DNA from: a virus
Lineage: Duplodnaviria > Caudoviricetes
DNA: 64,000 nucleotides
Virus record (IMG/VR): IMGVR_UViG_3300017716_003594
Coordinates: 3,424-67,423 of that record
Reading direction: 5' to 3' (one strand)
Numbering within the stretch: the stretch's first letter is position 1; each line of letters begins with the position of its first letter. Position numbers and translations under genes: made by a program. Below the pieces are notes generated by a model that was not told the DNA's origin, searched no databases, and saw nothing but the letters and a program-made list of their open reading frames with translations. Of the stretch, positions 769-14,298 are shown one piece after another.

Positions 769-874
769 CATTGGCGCCGGTAACAGGTACTCCCCGCACG
801 TCACCTAACGACATAGGCCGGGGGAGTTAAACGAGTGGATGCGGGACGGCCTGTCCGCCAATAAGGAGAGACCC

Positions 875-1198
875 ATGGGCTTTGATGGACGCGGCCGAGA
901 CGCCAGCACTCTCCCCGACACCGTGATGGAAAAGCTTCCTCGGACCCACGTGCCAATGCACGCCAGGGACCTGATCCGGGCGTTCGTCAAGCGCATCCAG
1001 AACATCGATGACGAGATCGCCAAGCACAACGCCGCGAAGTCTGAGGTCTACTCCGAGGCCAAAGCGCTGGGACTCTGCAAAGCCACGCTCCGCAAGGTGG
1101 TGCAGCGAGCCAGGAAGTCCAAGGACGAAGTCGAGGAAGCCGACACACTAGTCGAGCTTTACGAGCGTTGCCTCCAGCGCGATCCACTGGACGATTGA
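875..1198 (+). CDS. gapR: GapR/DUF2312 family nucleoid-associated DNA-binding protein
   Basis: RAFVKRIQNIDDEIAKHNAAKSEVYSEAKALG..TLRKVVQ..EEADTLVELY matches the GapR pattern; SD AAGGAG lies before ATG 875. Confidence 0.85.
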   Translation: MGFDGRGRDASTLPDTVMEKLPRTHVPMHARDLIRAFVKRIQNIDDEIAKHNAAKSEVYSEAKALGLCKATLRKVVQRARKSKDEVEEADTLVELYERCLQRDPLDD

Positions 1199-1254: not shown

Positions 1255-2205
1255 ATGGCCACAAGAGAGATACCGGACGCCGTTGACGGCTTCTTCCACA
1301 ACTACCGCGACCACTCCTTCAACAAGCGCACAGTCGAGATGCTCGGCCACGCGACCAGGATCGTGGACAACATGCGGGAGCAGGGCTACAAGCTCACGCT
1401 CCGCCAGCTCTATTACCGGCTGGTGTCGGAAGGGCTGATTGCCAACAATGACCACGAGTACAAGAAGCTCGGGCGCATCGTCACCCATGCACGCGAGTCC
1501 GGCCGGATGGACTGGCTGGCCATTGAAGACCGCGGCCGTCAAGCCTACGGTCCGCAGTGCGAGGAAGACCTCGACAAGCTCGCCAAGGGCATTGCCGACC
1601 AGTTGAAGTTTGACCAGTGGATGCGCCAGGACACCTACCTGGAAGTCTGGGTCGAGAAGCAGGCGCTCGAGTCCGTCATTGCTCGGCCCTGTAACCGGCT
1701 TGACGTCATCTACATGGCCTGCAAAGGTCACCTGTCGGCGTCTGAAGCCTGGCGCGCCGGCCAGCGATACCAGCGAGCCTTGGACCGCGGCAAGAACTGC
1801 GTCCTGATCCACCTGGCCGACCACGATCCGTCCGGCATCCACATGACCGAGGACAACCGTGACCGGGTCCGCATGTTCGCGGAAGACCAGGGCATAAAGG
1901 TCGAGCGCATTGCTCTGAACATGTCGCAGGTCGAACAGTACGCTCCGCCACCGAACCCGACCAAAAAGACAGACTCCCGCACGGCGTCATACAACAAGCG
2001 CTTTGGTGGCAGCTGCTGGGAGCTCGACGCTCTCGAGCCGTCGGTGCTGGACTCCCTTATCACCGGGGCAATCAACCGCTATCGTGACGAAGACCTGTGG
2101 GCCGAAGTCCTGGAGCTCGAGGCAGAAGAAAAGCGTCCGCTGGAAGCCCTGGCCGACAACTGGAACGCGGTCAAGAAGTTCATGAAGGACTCCGAGTTCT
2201 ACTGA
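1255..2205 (+). CDS. Top6A/Spo11-like protein (winged helix with catalytic Tyr plus Toprim), Mini-A-like
   Basis: LTLRQLYY (Y53/Y54), WVEK (E134) and DHDPSG (D189/D191) motifs; SD CAGGAG. Confidence 0.75.
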   Translation: MATREIPDAVDGFFHNYRDHSFNKRTVEMLGHATRIVDNMREQGYKLTLRQLYYRLVSEGLIANNDHEYKKLGRIVTHARESGRMDWLAIEDRGRQAYGPQCEEDLDKLAKGIADQLKFDQWMRQDTYLEVWVEKQALESVIARPCNRLDVIYMACKGHLSASEAWRAGQRYQRALDRGKNCVLIHLADHDPSGIHMTEDNRDRVRMFAEDQGIKVERIALNMSQVEQYAPPPNPTKKTDSRTASYNKRFGGSCWELDALEPSVLDSLITGAINRYRDEDLWAEVLELEAEEKRPLEALADNWNAVKKFMKDSEFY

Positions 2206-5242: not shown

Positions 5243-5899
5243 ATGAGCGGAGAGCACCATCTCTACCAGGTTGAAGACGGCTGGTGCGAGCTGGGCGATG
5301 GTACGGCCTTCTACTTCGGGGCCGAGCCGAACGTCCTGGCTGAGTCCATTGAGCCGTGGTCTATTGCCATGGCGCTCTCCAAGCTCTGCCGCTACAATGG
5401 CCACACCCGGCGGTTCTACTCGGTCGCCGAGCATACTATCCTGATGGCCGACTACGTCGAGAAGGTCCTGAAGCTCGGGCCGCGCGAGTGCCTCACGGCT
5501 CTCCACCACGACGACAGCGAGGGCCTGGTGCTTGGAGACCTGCCAAGGCCAGTTAAGGTCAAGATGCCCCAGTTCAAGGCCCTCGAAGACCGGCACGACA
5601 AGGCCATCTCGATCAGGTTCAACACAATCTACCCGCTGCCGCCGTTTGTCAAGGACCTTGACGCCCGCATTCTGAACGACGAACGCCGGGCAGTCATGCG
5701 CAAGTCGCCTCACACCTGGGGCGTCGATGACCTGGAGCCAATGGGCGTGAAGTTCTGGGCGATCCGTGGCCGGTTCTGCAGGCTGGTTGCTCACGAGTGG
5801 CTCAAGCGCCATGAGCGCTGGACACGGATGATGGAGTCTGAGAAGACGCCGGAGCTGCCTGTGTTGGTCGCCAACCTGGACTCCTATCGGGGCGTCTGA
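5243..5899 (+). CDS. HD-domain (YfbR-like) deoxynucleotide phosphohydrolase
   Basis: RYNGHT..YSVAEH..LHHDDSE..GDLPRPVK motif. Confidence 0.85.
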   Translation: MSGEHHLYQVEDGWCELGDGTAFYFGAEPNVLAESIEPWSIAMALSKLCRYNGHTRRFYSVAEHTILMADYVEKVLKLGPRECLTALHHDDSEGLVLGDLPRPVKVKMPQFKALEDRHDKAISIRFNTIYPLPPFVKDLDARILNDERRAVMRKSPHTWGVDDLEPMGVKFWAIRGRFCRLVAHEWLKRHERWTRMMESEKTPELPVLVANLDSYRGV

Positions 5900-7830: not shown

Positions 7831-8091
7831 ATGTCGAAAGACGCTGCTGCCGCCAAACCGGCGAAAGAACCCAAGGGCCCCACCGTCGGCGACGTCGCCA
7901 TCGAGGCCATCCGCGCCGGCAAGACCAACGAGGAAGCCCTCGCCGCGGTCAAGGCCAAGTTCCCGGAAGCGAAGACTTCCATGCCGTCCATCAACTGGTA
8001 CCGGAACAAGCTCCGCTCGGAAGGCGAGAAGGTTCCGACGGCGCGCGAGCTGAAGAAAGCCGCGAAAGAAAAAGCCGACCCGCTGGCCTAG
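7831..8091 (+). CDS. Small basic putative DNA-binding protein (paralogue of 13759 and 41927 genes)
   Basis: VKAKFPEAKTSMPSINWYRNKLR motif is shared with two other ORFs. Confidence 0.75.
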   Translation: MSKDAAAAKPAKEPKGPTVGDVAIEAIRAGKTNEEALAAVKAKFPEAKTSMPSINWYRNKLRSEGEKVPTARELKKAAKEKADPLA

Positions 8092-8129
8092 GCCCGGTTC
8101 GCAACCCCTCCGGGGCGTGCTATCATGAA

Positions 8130-8161
8130 GGGGACCGGGCATTCCGCTCGGTCCCCTTTTT
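8130..8161 (+). terminator. Rho-independent terminator
   Basis: GGGGACCG/CGGTCCCC stem followed by TTTTT. Confidence 0.75.
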
Positions 8162-8179
8162 GCTTACGGAGACAGACAG

Positions 8180-8929
8180 ATGAACGCTCTACAACGGCCC
8201 GAGGTCTTTGACCAGATCGGGGAAGGACTTGACTACCGACGCATTTACTGGCTCAACGGCCCGAACGTCAAGGGCAACGATAACAAGTGGGCCGTGAAAG
8301 ACCCGCCGACCGCTGGCTGGCAGTCAGCTATCGTGATACGGGGTGAGAAGCGGTCAACAATCTTCTGCCCGTTCTCGCTCAACAGCTGGGTGGTGCCGAA
8401 CCACTGCGCCGAGTTGACGCTGGCCAAGCACCAGCCGTTCGACGCCGAATGGTTCGCTAAGGCCATCCCGCGCATCTGGGCGGAAAACCAGAAGTTCGGC
8501 TACCAGAAGGACTACGACACCTGCGCCATGATCCTCAAGCGCATGGGTCTTCCTGTGCCTGAACAGGTCATGCGCGACGGCGAAGTGGACAACCGGGTCA
8601 AAGGCGGCAAGACAGTTGCCAAGAAGCTGGAAAAGCCCGTCAAGCTCAAGGGCAAGCGCGGACAGTTCCTGCTCTGGTTTCTGGAAGGCGGCGGCACTCG
8701 GTCCGTTCGCGAAGCCATGGCCGAGCACGGCATGTCCCGATCCAACGCACTGAGCTACCTCTACATGCTCCAGAAAGACCACGGCATCGGATACGAGCTG
8801 GTCGGCGACATGGCTCACATCAAAATGCCGGAAGGCGTCAGCAATCCGTTCGACGAACCATGGGGCGCTGAGCAAGAACCGGCCAAGGCCGAAGCTGAGG
8901 GAGTGTCCGATGACTTCCTCGACACCTGA
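8180..8929 (+). CDS. Hypothetical protein with C-terminal HTH-like segment
   Basis: SD GGAGA; RSVREAMAEHGMSRSNALSYLYML looks like a helix-turn-helix. Confidence 0.7.
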   Translation: MNALQRPEVFDQIGEGLDYRRIYWLNGPNVKGNDNKWAVKDPPTAGWQSAIVIRGEKRSTIFCPFSLNSWVVPNHCAELTLAKHQPFDAEWFAKAIPRIWAENQKFGYQKDYDTCAMILKRMGLPVPEQVMRDGEVDNRVKGGKTVAKKLEKPVKLKGKRGQFLLWFLEGGGTRSVREAMAEHGMSRSNALSYLYMLQKDHGIGYELVGDMAHIKMPEGVSNPFDEPWGAEQEPAKAEAEGVSDDFLDT

Positions 8930-9350
8930 GCGCATCATCCACCCAGTCCAACGCCTGATGGAACGCTACCGTTTGTCGTTGGAAGAAGCCAAAGCCACGC
9001 ATGTTCGCCATCACGGGGTTCTGCGGACAATGTCAGCAAAGGGCCGGTTTTTCCACTCCGGCGGCATTGTGCCAATAGAAGACGGAGACACCATCTTCTA
9101 TGCGGCCGTTGTTCGGCGTGAGAACGGTGAGGTCTTCATAGCCACCTACTACTCCAAGGCTATGTACGACAGCATGGTGCAGGGCCACAAGGCGGCGTCG
9201 CCATCTCGGCAGACTTTCGAGGTATACCGGGAAGGCGAGAAGTGCAAGATGAAAGGCATAAACACGGGTAAGCCGAAAGCGCGAGCCCGGCGTCAGCGCA
9301 TTACATCTGCTGGCTTCATCGCCAGGTACTGCCGAGGCGAGTTCGAATAA
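8910..9350 (+). CDS. Hypothetical protein
   Basis: SD GGGAG before ATG; overlaps the upstream gene end. Confidence 0.65.
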   Translation: MTSSTPERIIHPVQRLMERYRLSLEEAKATHVRHHGVLRTMSAKGRFFHSGGIVPIEDGDTIFYAAVVRRENGEVFIATYYSKAMYDSMVQGHKAASPSRQTFEVYREGEKCKMKGINTGKPKARARRQRITSAGFIARYCRGEFE

Positions 9351-9434
9351 CCCCGCCCTCGTTTCCCATTTGCTTGTTTACTCCCAGTTGGGGAGTCTGG
9401 TAATTCTCTTCCACAGTCACAGACAGGATGAGAC

Positions 9435-10598
9435 ATGGACCGGACTCCCCCACAACCTATCACCCGTGGCCTTGAGCAGGTCAAGCGCTTCCAGCAGGAA
9501 ATTCTCGACTTCCCCATCCCGCCGGTTCCGACGCGTCTTCATCCGACCCGGAAGAAGTTCGCCGTCAGCGCCATCGGCGAAGAGCTGATTGAGTTCGAGC
9601 AGGCCGAGACCCTGGCCGACGAAGCAGACGCCCTTCTGGACATGTGTTACTTTGCCTACGGCCGTCTTGTCGAGATGGGCCTTATGCCGTCGGTACTGGT
9701 CGACGAAGTTCATCGGGCCAACATGGCGAAGAAGCGCGGCGACCTGAAGAAGGCGCGCTCCGAGTTCAGCGGCGGCTATGACGCGGTCAAGCCTCCAGGC
9801 TGGACGCCTCCTGACCTCGAGCCCTACTTCATGACCCAGGACCAGATCGAGCAGGCTGCAAGTCTGATCCTGCATGGTCTTGCTGTGGATCATTCCATGG
9901 GTCATCACGGCATGTCCACCGACTGGACTCCGCCGGCTCCGCGTGTGGACACAAACAACACCCGCGAGTATAACCGCCCTCCCAAGATCATCGTGATCGG
10001 CCACGCCCGTCACGGCAAGGACACCGTGGCGGAGAAACTGTCCGACATCTACGGCCTGCCATTCACCTCGTCTTCCATCTTCTGCGCCGACAAGGTCATC
10101 CTCCCGCTGACCCAGGACGAAGACAAGCGGATGGCGTTCAGCCACCGGCTTCTCCAGCGCCTTGACTCAAAGCTCCCTGCCGAGCTGGCGCACTCGATCA
10201 GCGACCGGCTCGCCGATGTGCATGGCCAGTACGCCGACCGCGAGACCTGCTACGCCGACCGTCACCGAGACGACCTGATGCGCGCAACCTGGTACGAGGC
10301 GATCCGAGACTTCAACCGGCTCGACCAGGCAGCGCTTGCCCGGGCTATCTTCCAGGAGAATGACGTCTACTGCGGCTTGCGTTCCAAGCAAGAGCTGCGG
10401 GCGGCAATCAACTCCGGAACGGCCGACCTGGTTGTGTGGGTGGATGCGCTTGACCGCATGCCTCCCGAGCCGGCGACGTCCATCACTGTCACCGAGGCGA
10501 TGGCTCACTTCACCATCGACAACAACGGGTCCCTGGCGGACCTTGACCGGAACATCCGCGAGCTCTTCAACACTCTCGGCTTCAAGGCGGTGCGCTGA
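9435..10598 (+). CDS. MazG-like NTP pyrophosphohydrolase fused to dNMP kinase
   Basis: N-terminal EELIEFEQA..EADALLDMCYFAYG..EVHRANMAK (all-alpha NTP-PPase); C-terminal GHARHGKDT P-loop and IDNNGSL. Confidence 0.8.
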   Translation: MDRTPPQPITRGLEQVKRFQQEILDFPIPPVPTRLHPTRKKFAVSAIGEELIEFEQAETLADEADALLDMCYFAYGRLVEMGLMPSVLVDEVHRANMAKKRGDLKKARSEFSGGYDAVKPPGWTPPDLEPYFMTQDQIEQAASLILHGLAVDHSMGHHGMSTDWTPPAPRVDTNNTREYNRPPKIIVIGHARHGKDTVAEKLSDIYGLPFTSSSIFCADKVILPLTQDEDKRMAFSHRLLQRLDSKLPAELAHSISDRLADVHGQYADRETCYADRHRDDLMRATWYEAIRDFNRLDQAALARAIFQENDVYCGLRSKQELRAAINSGTADLVVWVDALDRMPPEPATSITVTEAMAHFTIDNNGSLADLDRNIRELFNTLGFKAVR

Positions 10599-11506
10599 TG
10601 AAAGAGCAGACCTTCCATCAGGCCTATCGCTCGCTCCTCACTGAGCTGTTCCACCACGGCGTCGAAGAGCTGAACCAGCGAACAAACACCAAGATCAAGA
10701 TGCTCCGGGGCGGCCACAGCTTCAAGCTGGACCTGTCCGACTGTCGCGTCCCTGTAGCGGGCAACCGTCGCTACTGGCCCCACGTTGCAGCCGCCGAGGT
10801 GGCCTGGCAGTTCATGGGCACGAAGGACCCGACCTTCATCCTGGCCAAGGCCCCAAAGCTGTGGTCCAAGTTCGTGGAAGACGGCGAGCTCAAGACCGCC
10901 TACGGTTACAGGTGGCGCGAGGCCTTTGGGCGCGACCAGCTCGACCTGGCCATGAAGGCTTTGACCGATGACCCGTCGAACCGGCAGGTATGGCTCCAGG
11001 CCTGGGACCCTCGCTCCGCCGGTCTTGGCCAGCCCGGACAGCCGAAGAACATCCCGTGCCCGATCGGCTTCACGCTGAGCCGCGATGGCTCGTCGCTTCA
11101 CATGTCGCTGTTCATCCGGTCTTCGGACGTCTTTGTCGGACTGCCTTACGACGTGATGGCCTACGCGCTCACACTCGACGCCATCTGCGCCTCGATGAAC
11201 CTGAAGCCCGGAACCCTGCACGTCACCCTGGCGCATCCTCACATCTACCAGCCTCACTGGCCGGCTATGGCAGCATGCCTCCATGAAGACGCCTGGCGCC
11301 AGTTGCCCGCAAACCGCGAACAGGGCTACAAGGCCCAGGCAATGGGCGACCGGTCCAATTGGTCTGACGACGTCGAGCCTGCCATGCCGGGGCTGACGAT
11401 CCAGCACATTCTGTCGGCGCCGGACCAGTATGTTGAGCACGTCAAGCTCCTGTCCAACCGGGTCGGCCACAACCCCTGGAACCCTGCGCCCGAGGTGATC
11501 GAATGA
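10598..11506 (+). CDS. Thymidylate-synthase-fold enzyme, predicted dCMP methylase/hydroxymethylase
   Basis: AEVAW, AYGYRW, DPSNRQ, IPC (C154), RSSDVFVGLPYD (D185 where dUMP-specific ThyA has Asn), HIY. Confidence 0.85.
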   Translation: MKEQTFHQAYRSLLTELFHHGVEELNQRTNTKIKMLRGGHSFKLDLSDCRVPVAGNRRYWPHVAAAEVAWQFMGTKDPTFILAKAPKLWSKFVEDGELKTAYGYRWREAFGRDQLDLAMKALTDDPSNRQVWLQAWDPRSAGLGQPGQPKNIPCPIGFTLSRDGSSLHMSLFIRSSDVFVGLPYDVMAYALTLDAICASMNLKPGTLHVTLAHPHIYQPHWPAMAACLHEDAWRQLPANREQGYKAQAMGDRSNWSDDVEPAMPGLTIQHILSAPDQYVEHVKLLSNRVGHNPWNPAPEVIE

Positions 11507-11943
11507 GCGGCCTGTCCAAGTGGGACCACCGGTTCCTGGCCATTGCGAACGACGTTTCCTTCTGGTCCAAGGACCCGGCGGGCGGCGTTGGCTGTGTGCT
11601 CGTCTCTCCTGACAAGCGCCAGGTGTCCTGGGGCTACAACGGCTTTCCTGCCGGGATACCCGACAACTATGAGGGCCTCAACCGGGAAGCCAAGAACCGG
11701 CTGACGCTCCACGCCGAGGACAACGCCCTGGCAAACGCTCCGTGCTCGGTTCACGGCTGGACCCTGTACACAACCAAGGCGCCTTGCTTCGAATGTTCCA
11801 AGCGGATCATTCAGAACCGGATCGCCCTGGTAGTACGTCCGCCGATCACGGACCTGAGCACCTGGTTCCTGGACCAGCGCGAAGGCGCTGCGCTTCTGAC
11901 GCAGGCTGGCGTTCGGCAACTGGTCGACGGTAAGGACCAATGA
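11503..11943 (+). CDS. dCMP deaminase family protein
   Basis: SKDP, GYNGFP, HAEDNA and PCFEC zinc motifs. Confidence 0.92.
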   Translation: MSGLSKWDHRFLAIANDVSFWSKDPAGGVGCVLVSPDKRQVSWGYNGFPAGIPDNYEGLNREAKNRLTLHAEDNALANAPCSVHGWTLYTTKAPCFECSKRIIQNRIALVVRPPITDLSTWFLDQREGAALLTQAGVRQLVDGKDQ

Positions 11944-12395
11944 GCGCGAGCCCGAAGGTTCCGGAGTCCAGTCTGTGGGACTGGCTAAAGAAGGCCAATC
12001 TAACCTTCCGCGAACTCCTGCATATGACCAGGATCGAGAACACCGCAGGCGACGGCGCCTCAGACGTCGAAGGTGTACTGGACGGCGGACCGTTCTACAT
12101 CGAGCTCAAGTCGGCTGCTCGGCCAGTCCGACCTGGCACTCCGATCAAGGTGCGCTTCGAACCGTCGCAGCCTGGATGGCACGAGGCTCGGCGCAAAGCC
12201 GGTCGGATGACTTTCATCCTGCTCCCGGTCGGAGCGCAGCATCAGGCTCGCCGCTATCTGGTCGAGAGCACGCACATTCCGGCCATGGCCGAAGGTGTGA
12301 CGGAGCAATGGCTCAACGAGCACGCCGTCATCGGTGCGCTCTCAAGTCGTGAGGAAATACTGGTCAGGGCTTCAAGAAGTCTCTACGCGCCCTAG
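11940..12395 (+). CDS. VRR-NUC / PD-(D/E)xK nuclease (resolvase-like)
   Basis: RIEN..GASDVEG..FYIELK..RFEPSQ.GWH pattern. Confidence 0.75.
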   Translation: MSASPKVPESSLWDWLKKANLTFRELLHMTRIENTAGDGASDVEGVLDGGPFYIELKSAARPVRPGTPIKVRFEPSQPGWHEARRKAGRMTFILLPVGAQHQARRYLVESTHIPAMAEGVTEQWLNEHAVIGALSSREEILVRASRSLYAP

Positions 12396-12697
12396 TACAC
12401 CAGCGCGGGGTCAGCAAAAGGCTTCGTTCGCGCCAAGTTCCAGGCAGCATTCCAGATGGGAACCCACGTGTCCTGCGGAAGAGCCTCGTCATCCCACATG
12501 AGCAACTGGTCTTCGTGGCAGCGGAAGACTTGGCAGATGGCGTCTTGCATCAGCATGTTGGCGTCTGAGAAGTCATGGGTTGCGCACACGCCGGGGTCGT
12601 AGGCGCGGTTCCGCTTGTCAATTTCCTTGACGTAGTCGGCCAGTTCTGTCCTAACGATGTAGCGGAAATGGTTGGCGGCTTCTGCAATCATGTCCAT
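12392..12697 (-). CDS. Hypothetical protein
   Basis: CATHDFSDAN..AWNLA; member of a compact minus-strand early operon. Confidence 0.7.
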   Translation of the reverse strand: MDMIAEAANHFRYIVRTELADYVKEIDKRNRAYDPGVCATHDFSDANMLMQDAICQVFRCHEDQLLMWDDEALPQDTWVPIWNAAWNLARTKPFADPALVY

Positions 12698-12865
12698 CTA
12701 GCGGTCCTCCATGTGGCCGTGCTTGGCGATGTACTCGTCGTACGCCTTCTCGTCAGCTTCGCGCTGGGCCCGATAGGCGGGATCATTGGCCATGCGGTCA
12801 GCATGTCGCTGGTCGCGTTCGCGGTTGCGAAGGGCGGTGGCCAACTGGTTTTGTGTCAGGAACAT
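12698..12865 (-). CDS. Small hypothetical protein (55 aa)
   Basis: MFLTQNQLATALRN..HGHMEDR*; SD AGGAG; abuts its neighbours. Confidence 0.6.
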   Translation of the reverse strand: MFLTQNQLATALRNRERDQRHADRMANDPAYRAQREADEKAYDEYIAKHGHMEDR

Positions 12866-13107
12866 TGCAGCACTCCTTTGGCTTTGAGGTCGGCAATGTT
12901 CTTGCGGACCTGCGCTTTTGCTTGGGCGAAAGTAAGCGGCTGGTTGACCTTCTCGCCAATGGCTTGGATCATCAGCACTGCTTCAGCCCAAGCTGGCGGA
13001 AGACCAGCGTTGGGACCGACTTTGAGCCATTTACGCGCCGGTTCGGCGTAGATGGCGGCGTGAGAGGCCTGCAGTCTCTCGAGAGACAGGTGACTGTAGC
13101 AGTTCAT
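12856..13107 (-). CDS. Hypothetical protein
   Basis: ATGA overlap with the upstream ORF. Confidence 0.6.
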   Translation of the reverse strand: MNCYSHLSLERLQASHAAIYAEPARKWLKVGPNAGLPPAWAEAVLMIQAIGEKVNQPLTFAQAKAQVRKNIADLKAKGVLQCS

Positions 13108-13250
13108 GACGCGTACACCTCGCCGTCGTCGAGGGCTTCGTGCTGCTCGATGTACGACCAGTAACCGTTGGCCATGTCTTCAGAAGCGTTCTTGGGCAGT
13201 TCTTCGCCTTTGCCAGCGAGGTTCCAGCCGATTTGGAATTGGTCGGTCAT
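13104..13250 (-). CDS. Small hypothetical protein (48 aa)
   Basis: MTDQFQIGWNLAG..VYAS*; tightly packed. Confidence 0.55.
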   Translation of the reverse strand: MTDQFQIGWNLAGKGEELPKNASEDMANGYWSYIEQHEALDDGEVYAS

Positions 13251-13253
13251 TGT

Positions 13254-13409
13254 TCAGCCCTCCGTGCGGGTGATGACGTCGTAGCCAAGCTTGACCCACA
13301 TTTTGCGGACCTCAATGGCGGTTTGTTCGGCGTGACGGCCAGACACGCGAAGCTCGCTGACAATGAGCTTGGCCTTGTCGTTGGTAAGGGCGGTTACGTA
13401 GAAGGTCAT
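13254..13409 (-). CDS. Small hypothetical protein (51 aa), paralogue of the 13413 gene
   Basis: Ends LGYDVITRTEG*; shares a junction repeat with its neighbour. Confidence 0.6.
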   Translation of the reverse strand: MTFYVTALTNDKAKLIVSELRVSGRHAEQTAIEVRKMWVKLGYDVITRTEG

Positions 13410-13412
13410 TGT

Positions 13413-13580
13413 TCAGCCTTTCAGTTTGGTGCGGATGGTGATGTCGTAGCCAAAGCGGTCTTCGTACTGCTTCTTGAGTTCTTCGGCCTGCTGGCGTGTA
13501 GCGCAAGGGATCGAGGTCTTGCGGCCCTTGCGGGTCCACTCGACCAGATGGTCTCCTTGATCTTTGAACATGCCGCGCAT
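13413..13580 (-). CDS. Small hypothetical protein (55 aa)
   Basis: SD GGAGA before ATG 13580; ends FGYDITIRTKLKG*. Confidence 0.65.
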   Translation of the reverse strand: MRGMFKDQGDHLVEWTRKGRKTSIPCATRQQAEELKKQYEDRFGYDITIRTKLKG

Positions 13581-13605
13581 CAGTGTCTCCGTCGTTGATG
13601 AGATA

Positions 13606-13671
13606 AGCATACGCTGGGTCCCTCTCTATGTACATGCCCTCGCCAACGTTTCTTGATGCCGTATTGCTACG
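13606..13671 (-). promoter_or_regulatory. Repeated early-type promoter, copy 1
   Basis: Minus strand CGTAGCAAT-N28-TGTACA-N17-TATGCT; near-identical copy at 18567-18642. Confidence 0.75.
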
Positions 13672-13758
13672 AACTATTTTCTCGTGGGCCCAGTTTACAT
13701 TGGCCCGCAGGCATGCCATTGTCCCATCATCTATCGCAACCCATGCAAGGAGACAGTC

Positions 13759-14298
13759 ATGGAAACCTACGCCTCGAAAAGCGGACCCGAGCTCACCGTC
13801 ATCTACAACGACCTGCGCGCAAAGATTGGCGAGCCGCCCATCAAGCGCTGGGCAGGCGCCAAGTCCGAGCTGATCGCCAAGATCGAAGTGCTCGAGCTGC
13901 GGCAGAAGCCCGAAGCAACGCCGCCGGCACCGACTCCTGAAGTCGTTGCCGAGAAGCCCAAGGCAAAGCAGAAGCCCGCCGCCAAGCCGAAAAGCAGCGA
14001 CGGCCGCACCATCCGCGAGACCAGTCTGGACCTGCTTGCCCACATTGACTTCTACGAGGACAAGCTTAAGCCGTCCAACGACGAGAACCGCGTCGACGCC
14101 GACCACAAGAACGCCCGCTCCGTTGGTCTCGCCTATCTCGAGATCATCCGCCGCGTGAAGGAAGAATTTCCTGACGCCGACACGCCGGTTGCGTGCCTCC
14201 GCTGGTACAGCGTCAAGGTCCGCGACTTCAAGAGCCACCCCGAGTACTCGGGTTGGAAGCTTCCGCAACGTCGCCCGCGTGCGACGCCCAAGAAGTAA
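13759..14298 (+). CDS. Putative DNA-binding protein (paralogue of 7831 and 41927 genes)
   Basis: SD AAGGAG; C-terminal IIRRVKEEFPDADTPVACLRWY motif. Confidence 0.75.
   Translation: METYASKSGPELTVIYNDLRAKIGEPPIKRWAGAKSELIAKIEVLELRQKPEATPPAPTPEVVAEKPKAKQKPAAKPKSSDGRTIRETSLDLLAHIDFYEDKLKPSNDENRVDADHKNARSVGLAYLEIIRRVKEEFPDADTPVACLRWYSVKVRDFKSHPEYSGWKLPQRRPRATPKK

Follow-up and report, generated by a model that had tools for sequence, protein, structure and literature searches.

Can a phage exchange the cytosine of its DNA for a methylated base at the level of the nucleotide pool, and with which enzymes? This question is raised by a short operon in the 67,423-bp virus record IMGVR_UViG_3300017716_003594 (Duplodnaviria; Caudoviricetes). 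The stretch analysed here, called the window, comprises 64,000 nucleotides (bases 3424-67423 of the record), and all coordinates below refer to it. At positions 9435-11943, it encodes a MazG-like pyrophosphatase fused to a deoxynucleoside monophosphate (dNMP) kinase, an enzyme of the thymidylate synthase (ThyA) fold with an Asp at the position of Asn177 of E. coli ThyA, and a zinc deaminase. We consider that these genes probably constitute a nucleotide-level cytosine replacement module of the type known from phage Xp12. Complete replacement of cytosine is predicted with somewhat less confidence, and 5-methylcytosine (5mC) is the most likely product. What the analysis shows is the structure of the genes, their domains and catalytic residues, their homology and their synteny, whereas every substrate and the composition of the DNA are inferred. 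The module and its tie to modified cytosine are already published (bioRxiv 10.1101/2024.12.05.627091; eLife PMC8670742), and their novelty was overstated in the first-pass annotation of this DNA. The gain lies in breadth and in a testable variant, the mechanism itself being already known.

The coupled gene block and its enzymes

The block is encoded on the plus strand and consists of gene 1 (9435-10598, 387 amino acids), gene 2 (10598-11506, 302 amino acids) and gene 3 (11503-11943, 146 amino acids), all of which are intact, followed by gene 4 (11940-12395, 151 amino acids), a homologue of gp14 from Roseobacter phage RDJL Phi1. Genes 1 and 2 overlap in a TGATG sequence (10596-10600) and genes 2 and 3 in an ATGA sequence (11503-11506), while another ATGA overlap joins genes 3 and 4. 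The first-pass annotation had described three translationally coupled genes; the coupling and the intact reading frames were borne out, but the coupled block consists of four genes. A scan of positions 8000-13800 for promoters and terminators revealed no convincing signal bounding the operon. The module order, with a helicase gene, three small genes, the MazG gene, the synthase gene, the deaminase gene, in some cases a gene for dihydrofolate reductase (DHFR), and the gp14-like gene, is common to Xp12, PaMx74, RDJL Phi1, RDJL3, Tedan, RcRudolph and JWX.

The product of gene 2 matches PF00303 (E 1e-35), and more than 1,000 synthase homologues are present in the database at an E of 1e-20 or better. 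Cys154 (TGC at 11057-11059) and Asp185 (GAC at 11150-11152) align with Cys146 and Asn177 of E. coli ThyA in both a six-sequence and an eleven-sequence alignment, and Pro155 occupies the position of His147. Asp is also found at the Asn177 position in T4 gp42 and in the Xp12 enzyme, whereas the PaMx11 homologue, which uses deoxyuridine monophosphate (dUMP), keeps the Asn. Asp177, Pro147, Phe83 and Gln127 (E. coli numbering, as for all residues in this paragraph from here on) are shared by all of the 120 nearest database homologues (55-100% identity). Because 120 out of 120 carry it, Asp177 is a fixed trait of the lineage and not a chance substitution. The core residues E58, Y94, R126, R166, S167, D169, H207 and Y209 are also kept. 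At 20 of 21 functional active-site positions, the enzyme is equal to those of Xp12 and PaMx74, the sole difference being R127Q, and a Gln at this position is likewise present in RDJL, Tedan and JWX. Arg179 of the L. casei thymidylate synthase, which is the equivalent of R127, is dispensable. The N177D exchange is reported to turn ThyA into a methylase for deoxycytidine monophosphate (dCMP) (Liu and Santi 1992; Hardy and Nalivaika 1992). In addition, positions 177 and 147 were the two synthase residues that best discriminated contigs with modified cytosine from unmodified contigs (MetaGPA, eLife 2021 PMC8670742). The catalytic Cys154 and the Asp185 at the place of Asn177 had been named in the first-pass annotation, and both the codons and the two alignments agree with it; its proposal that the Asp selects dCMP gains from the conservation among the homologues and from the signature shared with the Xp12 enzyme.

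The AlphaFold model of gene 2 (predicted local distance difference test, pLDDT, 88) superposes on the ternary complexes of E. coli ThyA over residues 7-302 versus 1-264, with a Z of 29.8 and a root-mean-square deviation of 2.0 Å for 255 residues, and its C-terminal tail PEVIE aligns with the C-terminus of ThyA. In ThyA, the last residues partly cover the active site upon folate binding; the T4 hydroxymethylase has no counterpart of the 27 residues at the ThyA C-terminus, and its folate site is more open (MilA structure paper). Methyl transfer is favoured over hydroxymethylation because the ThyA-like C-terminal segment is kept and the signature is Xp12-like, and we read gene 2 as a putative dCMP C5-methyltransferase of the Xp12 type (EC 2.1.1.54). 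Sequence identity is 59-65% to the enzymes of RDJL and Tedan, 42-48% to those of Xp12 and PaMx74, 42-45% to those of the Rc phages, 26% to ThyA and 19% to gp42. A canonical ThyA (EC 2.1.1.45) is contradicted by the Asp at position 177 and by a score of 87 bits for the best NCBIfam ThyA equivalog, below its cut-off of 327. A T4-type dCMP hydroxymethylase (EC 2.1.2.8) would agree with the Asp, but not with the kept C-terminal segment and the low identity to gp42. A tree of 11 sequences grouped the window enzyme with those of Tedan and RDJL with modest support (82/87), but its backbone was unresolved and the outgroup branches were very long. Bracketing gene 2 among assayed methylases by this tree was dropped for that reason, and signature and fold were relied on instead.

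Gene 1 encodes a two-domain protein. Its N-terminal part (residues 1-147, 9435-9875, plus strand) is a MazG-like nucleoside triphosphate (NTP) pyrophosphohydrolase domain of the all-alpha, four-helix fold, the match covering approx. residues 10-130. It is supported by PF01503 (PRA-PH/MazG; E 1.2e-10, 42 bits against a cut-off of 21), by phmmer matches to DR2231 and 3NL9 and by Foldseek matches to DR2231 with a TM-score of about 0.6 on the target. The acidic metal-binding motif EExxE...D (E49, E50, E53, D65 and D69) is invariant in 31 homologues. A disordered linker (residues 148-176, 9876-9962, plus strand), with a pLDDT below 50 in the AlphaFold model and a length that differs among the homologues of gene 1, leads to a P-loop dNMP kinase domain of the T4 gp1 type (residues 177-387, 9963-10598, plus strand). 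This domain contains the Walker A motif GHARHGKDT, of which G189, H193, G194, K195 and D196 are invariant, and it matches phrog_139 (dNMP kinase, 4.7e-13). The T4 dNMP kinase 1DEK is the top Foldseek match in the PDB (E 9e-5), with a target TM-score of just 0.41 when the whole two-domain model is used. These matches uphold the pyrophosphatase-kinase fusion of the first-pass annotation. As judged from homology, we propose that the MazG domain converts deoxycytidine triphosphate (dCTP), and possibly also deoxyuridine triphosphate (dUTP), to the dNMP and pyrophosphate, and that the kinase domain converts 5-methyl-dCMP to 5-methyl-dCDP.

Searches recovered the fusion in RDJL Phi1 and Tedan, an alignment showed it in RcRudolph, and gene lengths suggest that RDJL3 and RDJL6 carry it too. 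In Xp12 and PaMx74, by contrast, the MazG part of the gene is followed by an unrelated short tail, and a homologue of the kinase domain was not detected anywhere in the Xp12, PaMx74 and JWX records. The fusion is nonetheless common, with about 290 matching database proteins, many of them on 60-kb viral contigs. Contigs of about 60 kb that NCBI labels as Brucella abortus also encode both the fusion protein and the Asp177 synthase; the probable explanation is that a Brucella assembly includes the genome of a related phage or is contaminated. Public annotations of these genes are misleading in three records (Xp12, RDJL Phi1 and RcRudolph), where the gene for MazG or the MazG-kinase bears the label 'HAD superfamily hydrolase' or 'Cof hydrolase', and that for the Asp177 enzyme of the ThyA fold the label 'thymidylate synthase' or 'ThyX-like thymidylate synthase'.

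Gene 3, presented in the first-pass annotation as a dCMP deaminase gene, is intact and matches PF00383 above the cut-off (2.6e-17) as well as phrog_174 (5e-39), and it displays the zinc-binding and catalytic motifs HAE (H70, E72) and PCFEC (C95, C98). Among solved structures, it is closest to human DCTD (2W4L) and to the bifunctional dCMP/dCTP deaminase of PBCV-1 (7FH4), with an E of about 4e-13. We propose, by analogy, that it converts a 5-methyl-deoxycytidine nucleotide to the corresponding thymidine nucleotide. The substrate may be 5-methyl-dCTP rather than 5-methyl-dCMP, as was shown for the related mSCD-B5, which deaminates 5-methyl-dCTP (5mdCTP) and 5-hydroxymethyl-dCTP (5hmdCTP) but not the monophosphates (bioRxiv 10.1101/2024.12.05.627091). 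Selectivity for 5mC is reported to be sporadic within the deaminase family. Gene 4 matches phrog_2165 (8e-29) and no Pfam or NCBIfam family. Its region is recovered by tblastn with RDJL gp14 (2e-39), with the corresponding neighbours in Xp12, Tedan and JWX (1e-19 to 3e-33) and with the RcRudolph 'nuclease' (3e-15). A galectin was the sole PDB sequence match of gene 4, no stretch passing the threshold alone, and this assignment is not credible.

The proposed pathway and its folate demand

In the proposed pathway, the MazG-like domain would hydrolyse dCTP to dCMP, which drains the canonical triphosphate and feeds the methylase. The Asp185 enzyme would then methylate dCMP at C5 with methylene-tetrahydrofolate, producing 5-methyl-dCMP and dihydrofolate. 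Phosphorylation by the fused gp1-like kinase would yield 5-methyl-dCDP, the host nucleoside diphosphate kinase would generate 5-methyl-dCTP and the family-A DNA polymerase of the phage (2317-4965) would incorporate it. The deaminase would turn part of the 5-methyl-deoxycytidine nucleotide pool, at the level of the tri- or monophosphate, into thymidine nucleotides, so that one methylase could supply both 5mC and T. Virion DNA would be expected to contain 5mC at most or all C positions, and most C-containing Type II restriction sites would be blocked. As the phage appears to encode no DHFR, the recycling of dihydrofolate would fall to the host.

Published work on related systems provides a precedent for this scheme. 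In Xp12, all C is replaced by 5mC, and labelled cytosine reaches both 5mC and T. The Xp12 enzyme makes 5-methyl-dCMP, and 5-methyldeoxycytidine (5mdC) is formed in vivo when it is expressed with T4 gp1; 5mdC was likewise made in vivo by five out of seven further Asp177 synthases that are linked to a deaminase and originate from metaviromes (bioRxiv 10.1101/2024.12.05.627091). In the MetaGPA data, 70% of the deaminases on contigs with modified cytosine have a synthase gene no more than 3 kb away, versus 6% on unmodified contigs. PRA-PH was among the top co-localised domains, and the neighbourhood of PRA-PH, synthase and deaminase was enriched on modified contigs. Resistance to 26 of 31 restriction enzymes was described for AXL1, which is closely related to Xp12. 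The first-pass annotation had suggested that dCMP is converted to 5-methyl-dCMP and is then phosphorylated or deaminated. This scheme gains support, as each step matches the studied Xp12 pathway and the proteins are clear homologues. Its view that the methylated product is deaminated for the T supply matches the Xp12 pathway too, but the monophosphate level that it assumed may have to be replaced by 5-methyl-dCTP, as in mSCD-B5. Where it had left the choice between 5mC and unglycosylated 5-hydroxymethylcytosine (5hmC) undecided, the retained ThyA C-terminal segment now favours 5mC and makes 5hmC less likely.

Other modifying enzymes were sought in Pfam and PHROG scans that covered every called open reading frame (ORF) of about 60 amino acids or more in the 67.4-kb genome. 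Whole-genome family searches returned a single PF00303 match and no ThyX, no C5 DNA methylase and no second ThyA. None of the scanned ORFs matches a glycosyltransferase, TET/JBP or carbamoyltransferase family, and the earlier remark that no glycosyltransferase is visible thus holds at the Pfam level for all ORFs of this size. A decorating enzyme of a novel type may still be encoded among the many small ORFs that have no family match.

A methylase uses up reduced folate, whereas a hydroxymethylase does not. If one methylase supplied both 5mC and T, it would oxidise one folate for approximately half of all nucleotides made, and since the phage appears to lack a DHFR, it must lean on that of the host. 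The phage DHFRs of this group are very divergent, and their absence by a family model needs a second test. PF00186 is of low sensitivity: it misses the annotated DHFR of RDJL Phi1 (gp15) and barely finds those of Xp12 and RcRudolph (28 bits). As PF00186 had missed the RDJL Phi1 protein, tblastn searches with five phage DHFRs were added. The DHFR gene lies between the deaminase gene and the gp14-like gene in Xp12, RDJL and RcRudolph, the gene after DHFR in PaMx74 is a homologue of gene 4 as well, and a DHFR has been reported for each of the eight Pamexvirus phages. In Tedan and JWX, the module has no annotated DHFR next to it, and the low-sensitivity PF00186 search did not find one either. In the nearest metagenomic relative (82% identity in gene 1), the deaminase gene runs directly into the gp14-like gene, and no DHFR was called on this partial contig of 9 kb. 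DHFR looks like an accessory gene of the module, and its absence from the window phage is the main point in favour of a hydroxymethylase.

Restriction sites and rival explanations

Across the whole genome, RGATCY sites (AGATCT, GGATCC and AGATCC/GGATCT) were not found although about 20 are expected, and TGATCA was likewise absent with 18 expected (Poisson probability 1e-8). GATC itself, CGATCG, CCGG, GGCC and GCGC are not avoided. Among the relatives, Xp12, PaMx74 and RcRudolph have no TGATCA site, RDJL Phi1 has a single one and Tedan has 16. The 5mC-containing DNA of Xp12 is cut completely by DpnII (GATC), very partially by BstYI (RGATCY), and not by BamHI and BglII. The site pattern of the window phage fits a DNA that is protected at most C-containing sites, yet open to some enzymes with a GATC core. 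Because it also fits unmodified DNA that faces two particular host enzymes, site avoidance was not counted as evidence.

Several observations weigh against a 5mC replacement module. DR2231, to which the MazG domain is closest among solved structures, was obtained in crystals with dUMP and with an analogue of dUTP, but not with a cytidine nucleotide; the substrate of this closest known relative thus appears to be dUTP, and that the window enzyme hydrolyses dCTP is a guess. Identity to the assayed Xp12 enzyme does not exceed the 42-48% range, and the group of RDJL, Tedan and window enzymes forms a separate branch that is weakly resolved in a small tree. No DHFR was found in the window phage, PF00186 giving no match and the five related phage DHFRs nothing better than E 0.2 by tblastn (the genes downstream of these DHFRs do match, at 1e-15 to 1e-39), while a DHFR gene resides beside the deaminase gene in Xp12, PaMx74, RDJL Phi1, RDJL3 and RcRudolph. 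The complete avoidance of RGATCY and TGATCA indicates that the DNA is still exposed to some restriction enzymes. Finally, the DNA composition is deduced from sequence alone, and the only public run with this sequence is kept as contigs.

Three rival explanations have to be weighed against these data. The ThyA-fold enzyme could be a dCMP hydroxymethylase that leads to DNA with unglycosylated 5hmC. The Asp at the Asn177 position is shared with T4 gp42, a missing DHFR fits a reaction that regenerates tetrahydrofolate, and deaminases of the mSCD type also accept 5hmdCTP. The enzyme is nevertheless far closer to the Xp12 methylase than to gp42 (19% identity), and gp42 differs at 10 of the 21 signature positions, three of which are missing tail positions, whereas the window enzyme equals Xp12 and PaMx74 at all but one. 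The ThyA-like C-terminal segment that is absent in gp42 is kept and predicted to fold as in ThyA, and the argument from folate is weakened by the apparently accessory nature of DHFR, for which none was found in Tedan, in JWX (with the low sensitivity of PF00186) or on the partial contig of the nearest relative. Taken together, we regard a hydroxymethylase as quite unlikely.

The methylase assignment could also be correct and the module could mainly serve as a dUMP-independent route to thymidylate, with little or no 5mC in the DNA or with partial replacement. A deaminase encoded directly after the methylase could use up most of the product, dCTP may not be excluded from the pool, given the uridine nucleotides bound to the nearest solved MazG relative, and the total lack of RGATCY and TGATCA sites shows that restriction still exerts selection. 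This avoidance is, on the other hand, compatible with 5mC DNA, as DpnII cuts Xp12 DNA, BstYI does so very partially and Xp12 itself is devoid of TGATCA. A dNMP kinase that is fused to a pyrophosphatase makes most sense for pushing a non-canonical monophosphate to the triphosphate, the same core genes give complete replacement in Xp12, and MetaGPA ties the neighbourhood to modified DNA; a thymidylate route is thus unlikely to be the main function. An ordinary thymidylate cluster, in which the deaminase supplies dUMP, the synthase converts it to deoxythymidine monophosphate, MazG acts as a house-cleaning dUTPase and the DNA is unmodified, would fit the ThyA fold and the GenBank labels of the homologues as thymidylate synthase and dCMP deaminase. 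It is very improbable, because the dUMP-selecting Asn177 is replaced by Asp in every one of the 120 homologues, the homologue of PaMx11 that does use dUMP keeps the Asn, the score stays far below the ThyA equivalog cut-off, and the N177D exchange is reported to make ThyA a dCMP methylase (Liu and Santi 1992; Hardy and Nalivaika 1992). An Xp12-type module that methylates dCMP and places 5mC in the DNA remains the preferred explanation.

Genome context, significance and comparison with known systems

The siphovirus genome that carries the module is complete, with a length of 67.4 kb, and has an alphaproteobacterial host; the module is located in its early/replication region. The record is rated complete by CheckV, carries direct terminal repeats of 123 bp and has a GC content of about 60%. 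A freshwater metagenome, stored as contigs, is the only public run with this sequence and probably its source. The nearest cultured relatives at both the DNA and the protein level are the Roseobacter phages RDJL Phi1, Phi2, RDJL3 and RDJL6 (Xiamenvirus), Ruegeria phage Tedan and the Rhodobacter phages RcRudolph and RcSimone-Hastad, whereas the group of Xp12, PaMx74 and AXL1 (Mesyanzhinovviridae) as well as Achromobacter phage JWX are more remote. The alphaproteobacterial host, already assumed in the first-pass annotation, is supported because these nearest relatives infect Roseobacter, Ruegeria and Rhodobacter, and because a permuted transfer-messenger RNA (tmRNA), GapR and tail genes resembling those of gene transfer agents are present. 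The tmRNA, predicted by ARAGORN at 185-567 on the plus strand, is of the permuted two-piece type that fits such a host and encodes the tag ANDNVDMEEMRLAA. A gene for a GapR-domain protein (839-1198, plus strand) adjoins that for a Top6A/Spo11-like protein (1255-2205, plus strand; phrog_6247, 'DNA topoisomerase', 2e-107), which is located just upstream of the DNA polymerase gene. Downstream, a 218-amino-acid protein (5243-5899, plus strand) matches phrog_318, an HD-type deoxyribonucleoside 5'-monophosphate phosphatase, but no Pfam family at an E of 0.01. RDJL Phi1 has genes for HD-superfamily phosphohydrolases in the equivalent place, just upstream of the helicase gene, and the phrog_318 protein may also shape the dNMP pool.

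If confirmed, complete replacement of C by 5mC would no longer be confined to a few phages of Xanthomonas, Pseudomonas and Stenotrophomonas, but would reach a widespread group of phages that infect Rhodobacterales-like hosts in the sea and in fresh water. Among them are model roseophages, which are directly testable. A literature search on the RDJL, Tedan and Rc phages, which did not cover the 2009 description of RDJL, found no paper that reports 5mC. Such a replacement bears on the escape from restriction, on the exposure to methyl-dependent (Type IV) defences and on the bias in restriction-based or bisulfite-type analyses of aquatic viromes, and candidate enzymes with which 5mC nucleotides could be made or read are available in the pyrophosphatase-kinase fusion and the deaminase linked to it. 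As a more far-reaching hypothesis, the fusion could be a single bifunctional 'swap' enzyme that destroys dCTP, spares 5-methyl-dCTP and selectively phosphorylates 5-methyl-dCMP, which together with the methylase could suffice for complete C replacement. This design, without DHFR in the lineage of this phage, may characterise many siphoviruses of aquatic alphaproteobacteria, a large group that has so far gone unrecognised and to which the cultured RDJL, Tedan and Rc phages belong; their DNA would then be fully 5mC-substituted. We put this forward tentatively, as an idea that falls somewhat short of an even chance.

Among the known systems, the module resembles those of Xp12 and PaMx74 in gene order, with the helicase gene upstream and the gp14-like gene downstream, in a homologous MazG-like domain and in the near-identical synthase signature, including Asp177, Pro147 and the PEV(I/V)E tail. 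Its deaminase is about 41-42% identical to those of the closest relatives of Xp12. In contrast to these phages, it possesses the extra gp1-like kinase domain and a Gln at the R127 position but no DHFR, and it belongs to a freshwater phage of an alphaproteobacterial host. The module order is also that of the RDJL, Tedan and Rc phages, of which RDJL Phi1, Tedan and RcRudolph have the same fusion. RDJL Phi1, RDJL3 and RcRudolph differ in having kept DHFR after the deaminase, whereas Tedan is like the window phage in that no DHFR is annotated beside the module or was found by the low-sensitivity search. Compared by published description, the loci of the MetaGPA and mSCD-B5 studies likewise contain PRA-PH, Thymidylat_synt with Asp177 and dCMP_cyt_deam_1 within 3 kb, and PBCV-1 7FH4 is the closest solved relative of the deaminase in both mSCD-B5 and the window phage.

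The T4 pathway consists of the dCTPase gp56, the dCMP hydroxymethylase gp42, the dNMP kinase gp1 and glucosyltransferases. The window phage differs in that its pyrophosphatase is MazG-like instead of gp56-like and shares one polypeptide with the kinase, no glucosyltransferase was found in its genome, and gp42, only distantly related at 19% identity, lacks the ThyA C-terminal segment. Both systems nonetheless appear to share the same logic, i.e. to destroy dCTP, to modify dCMP with an Asp-bearing enzyme of the ThyA fold and to phosphorylate the product with a gp1-type kinase.

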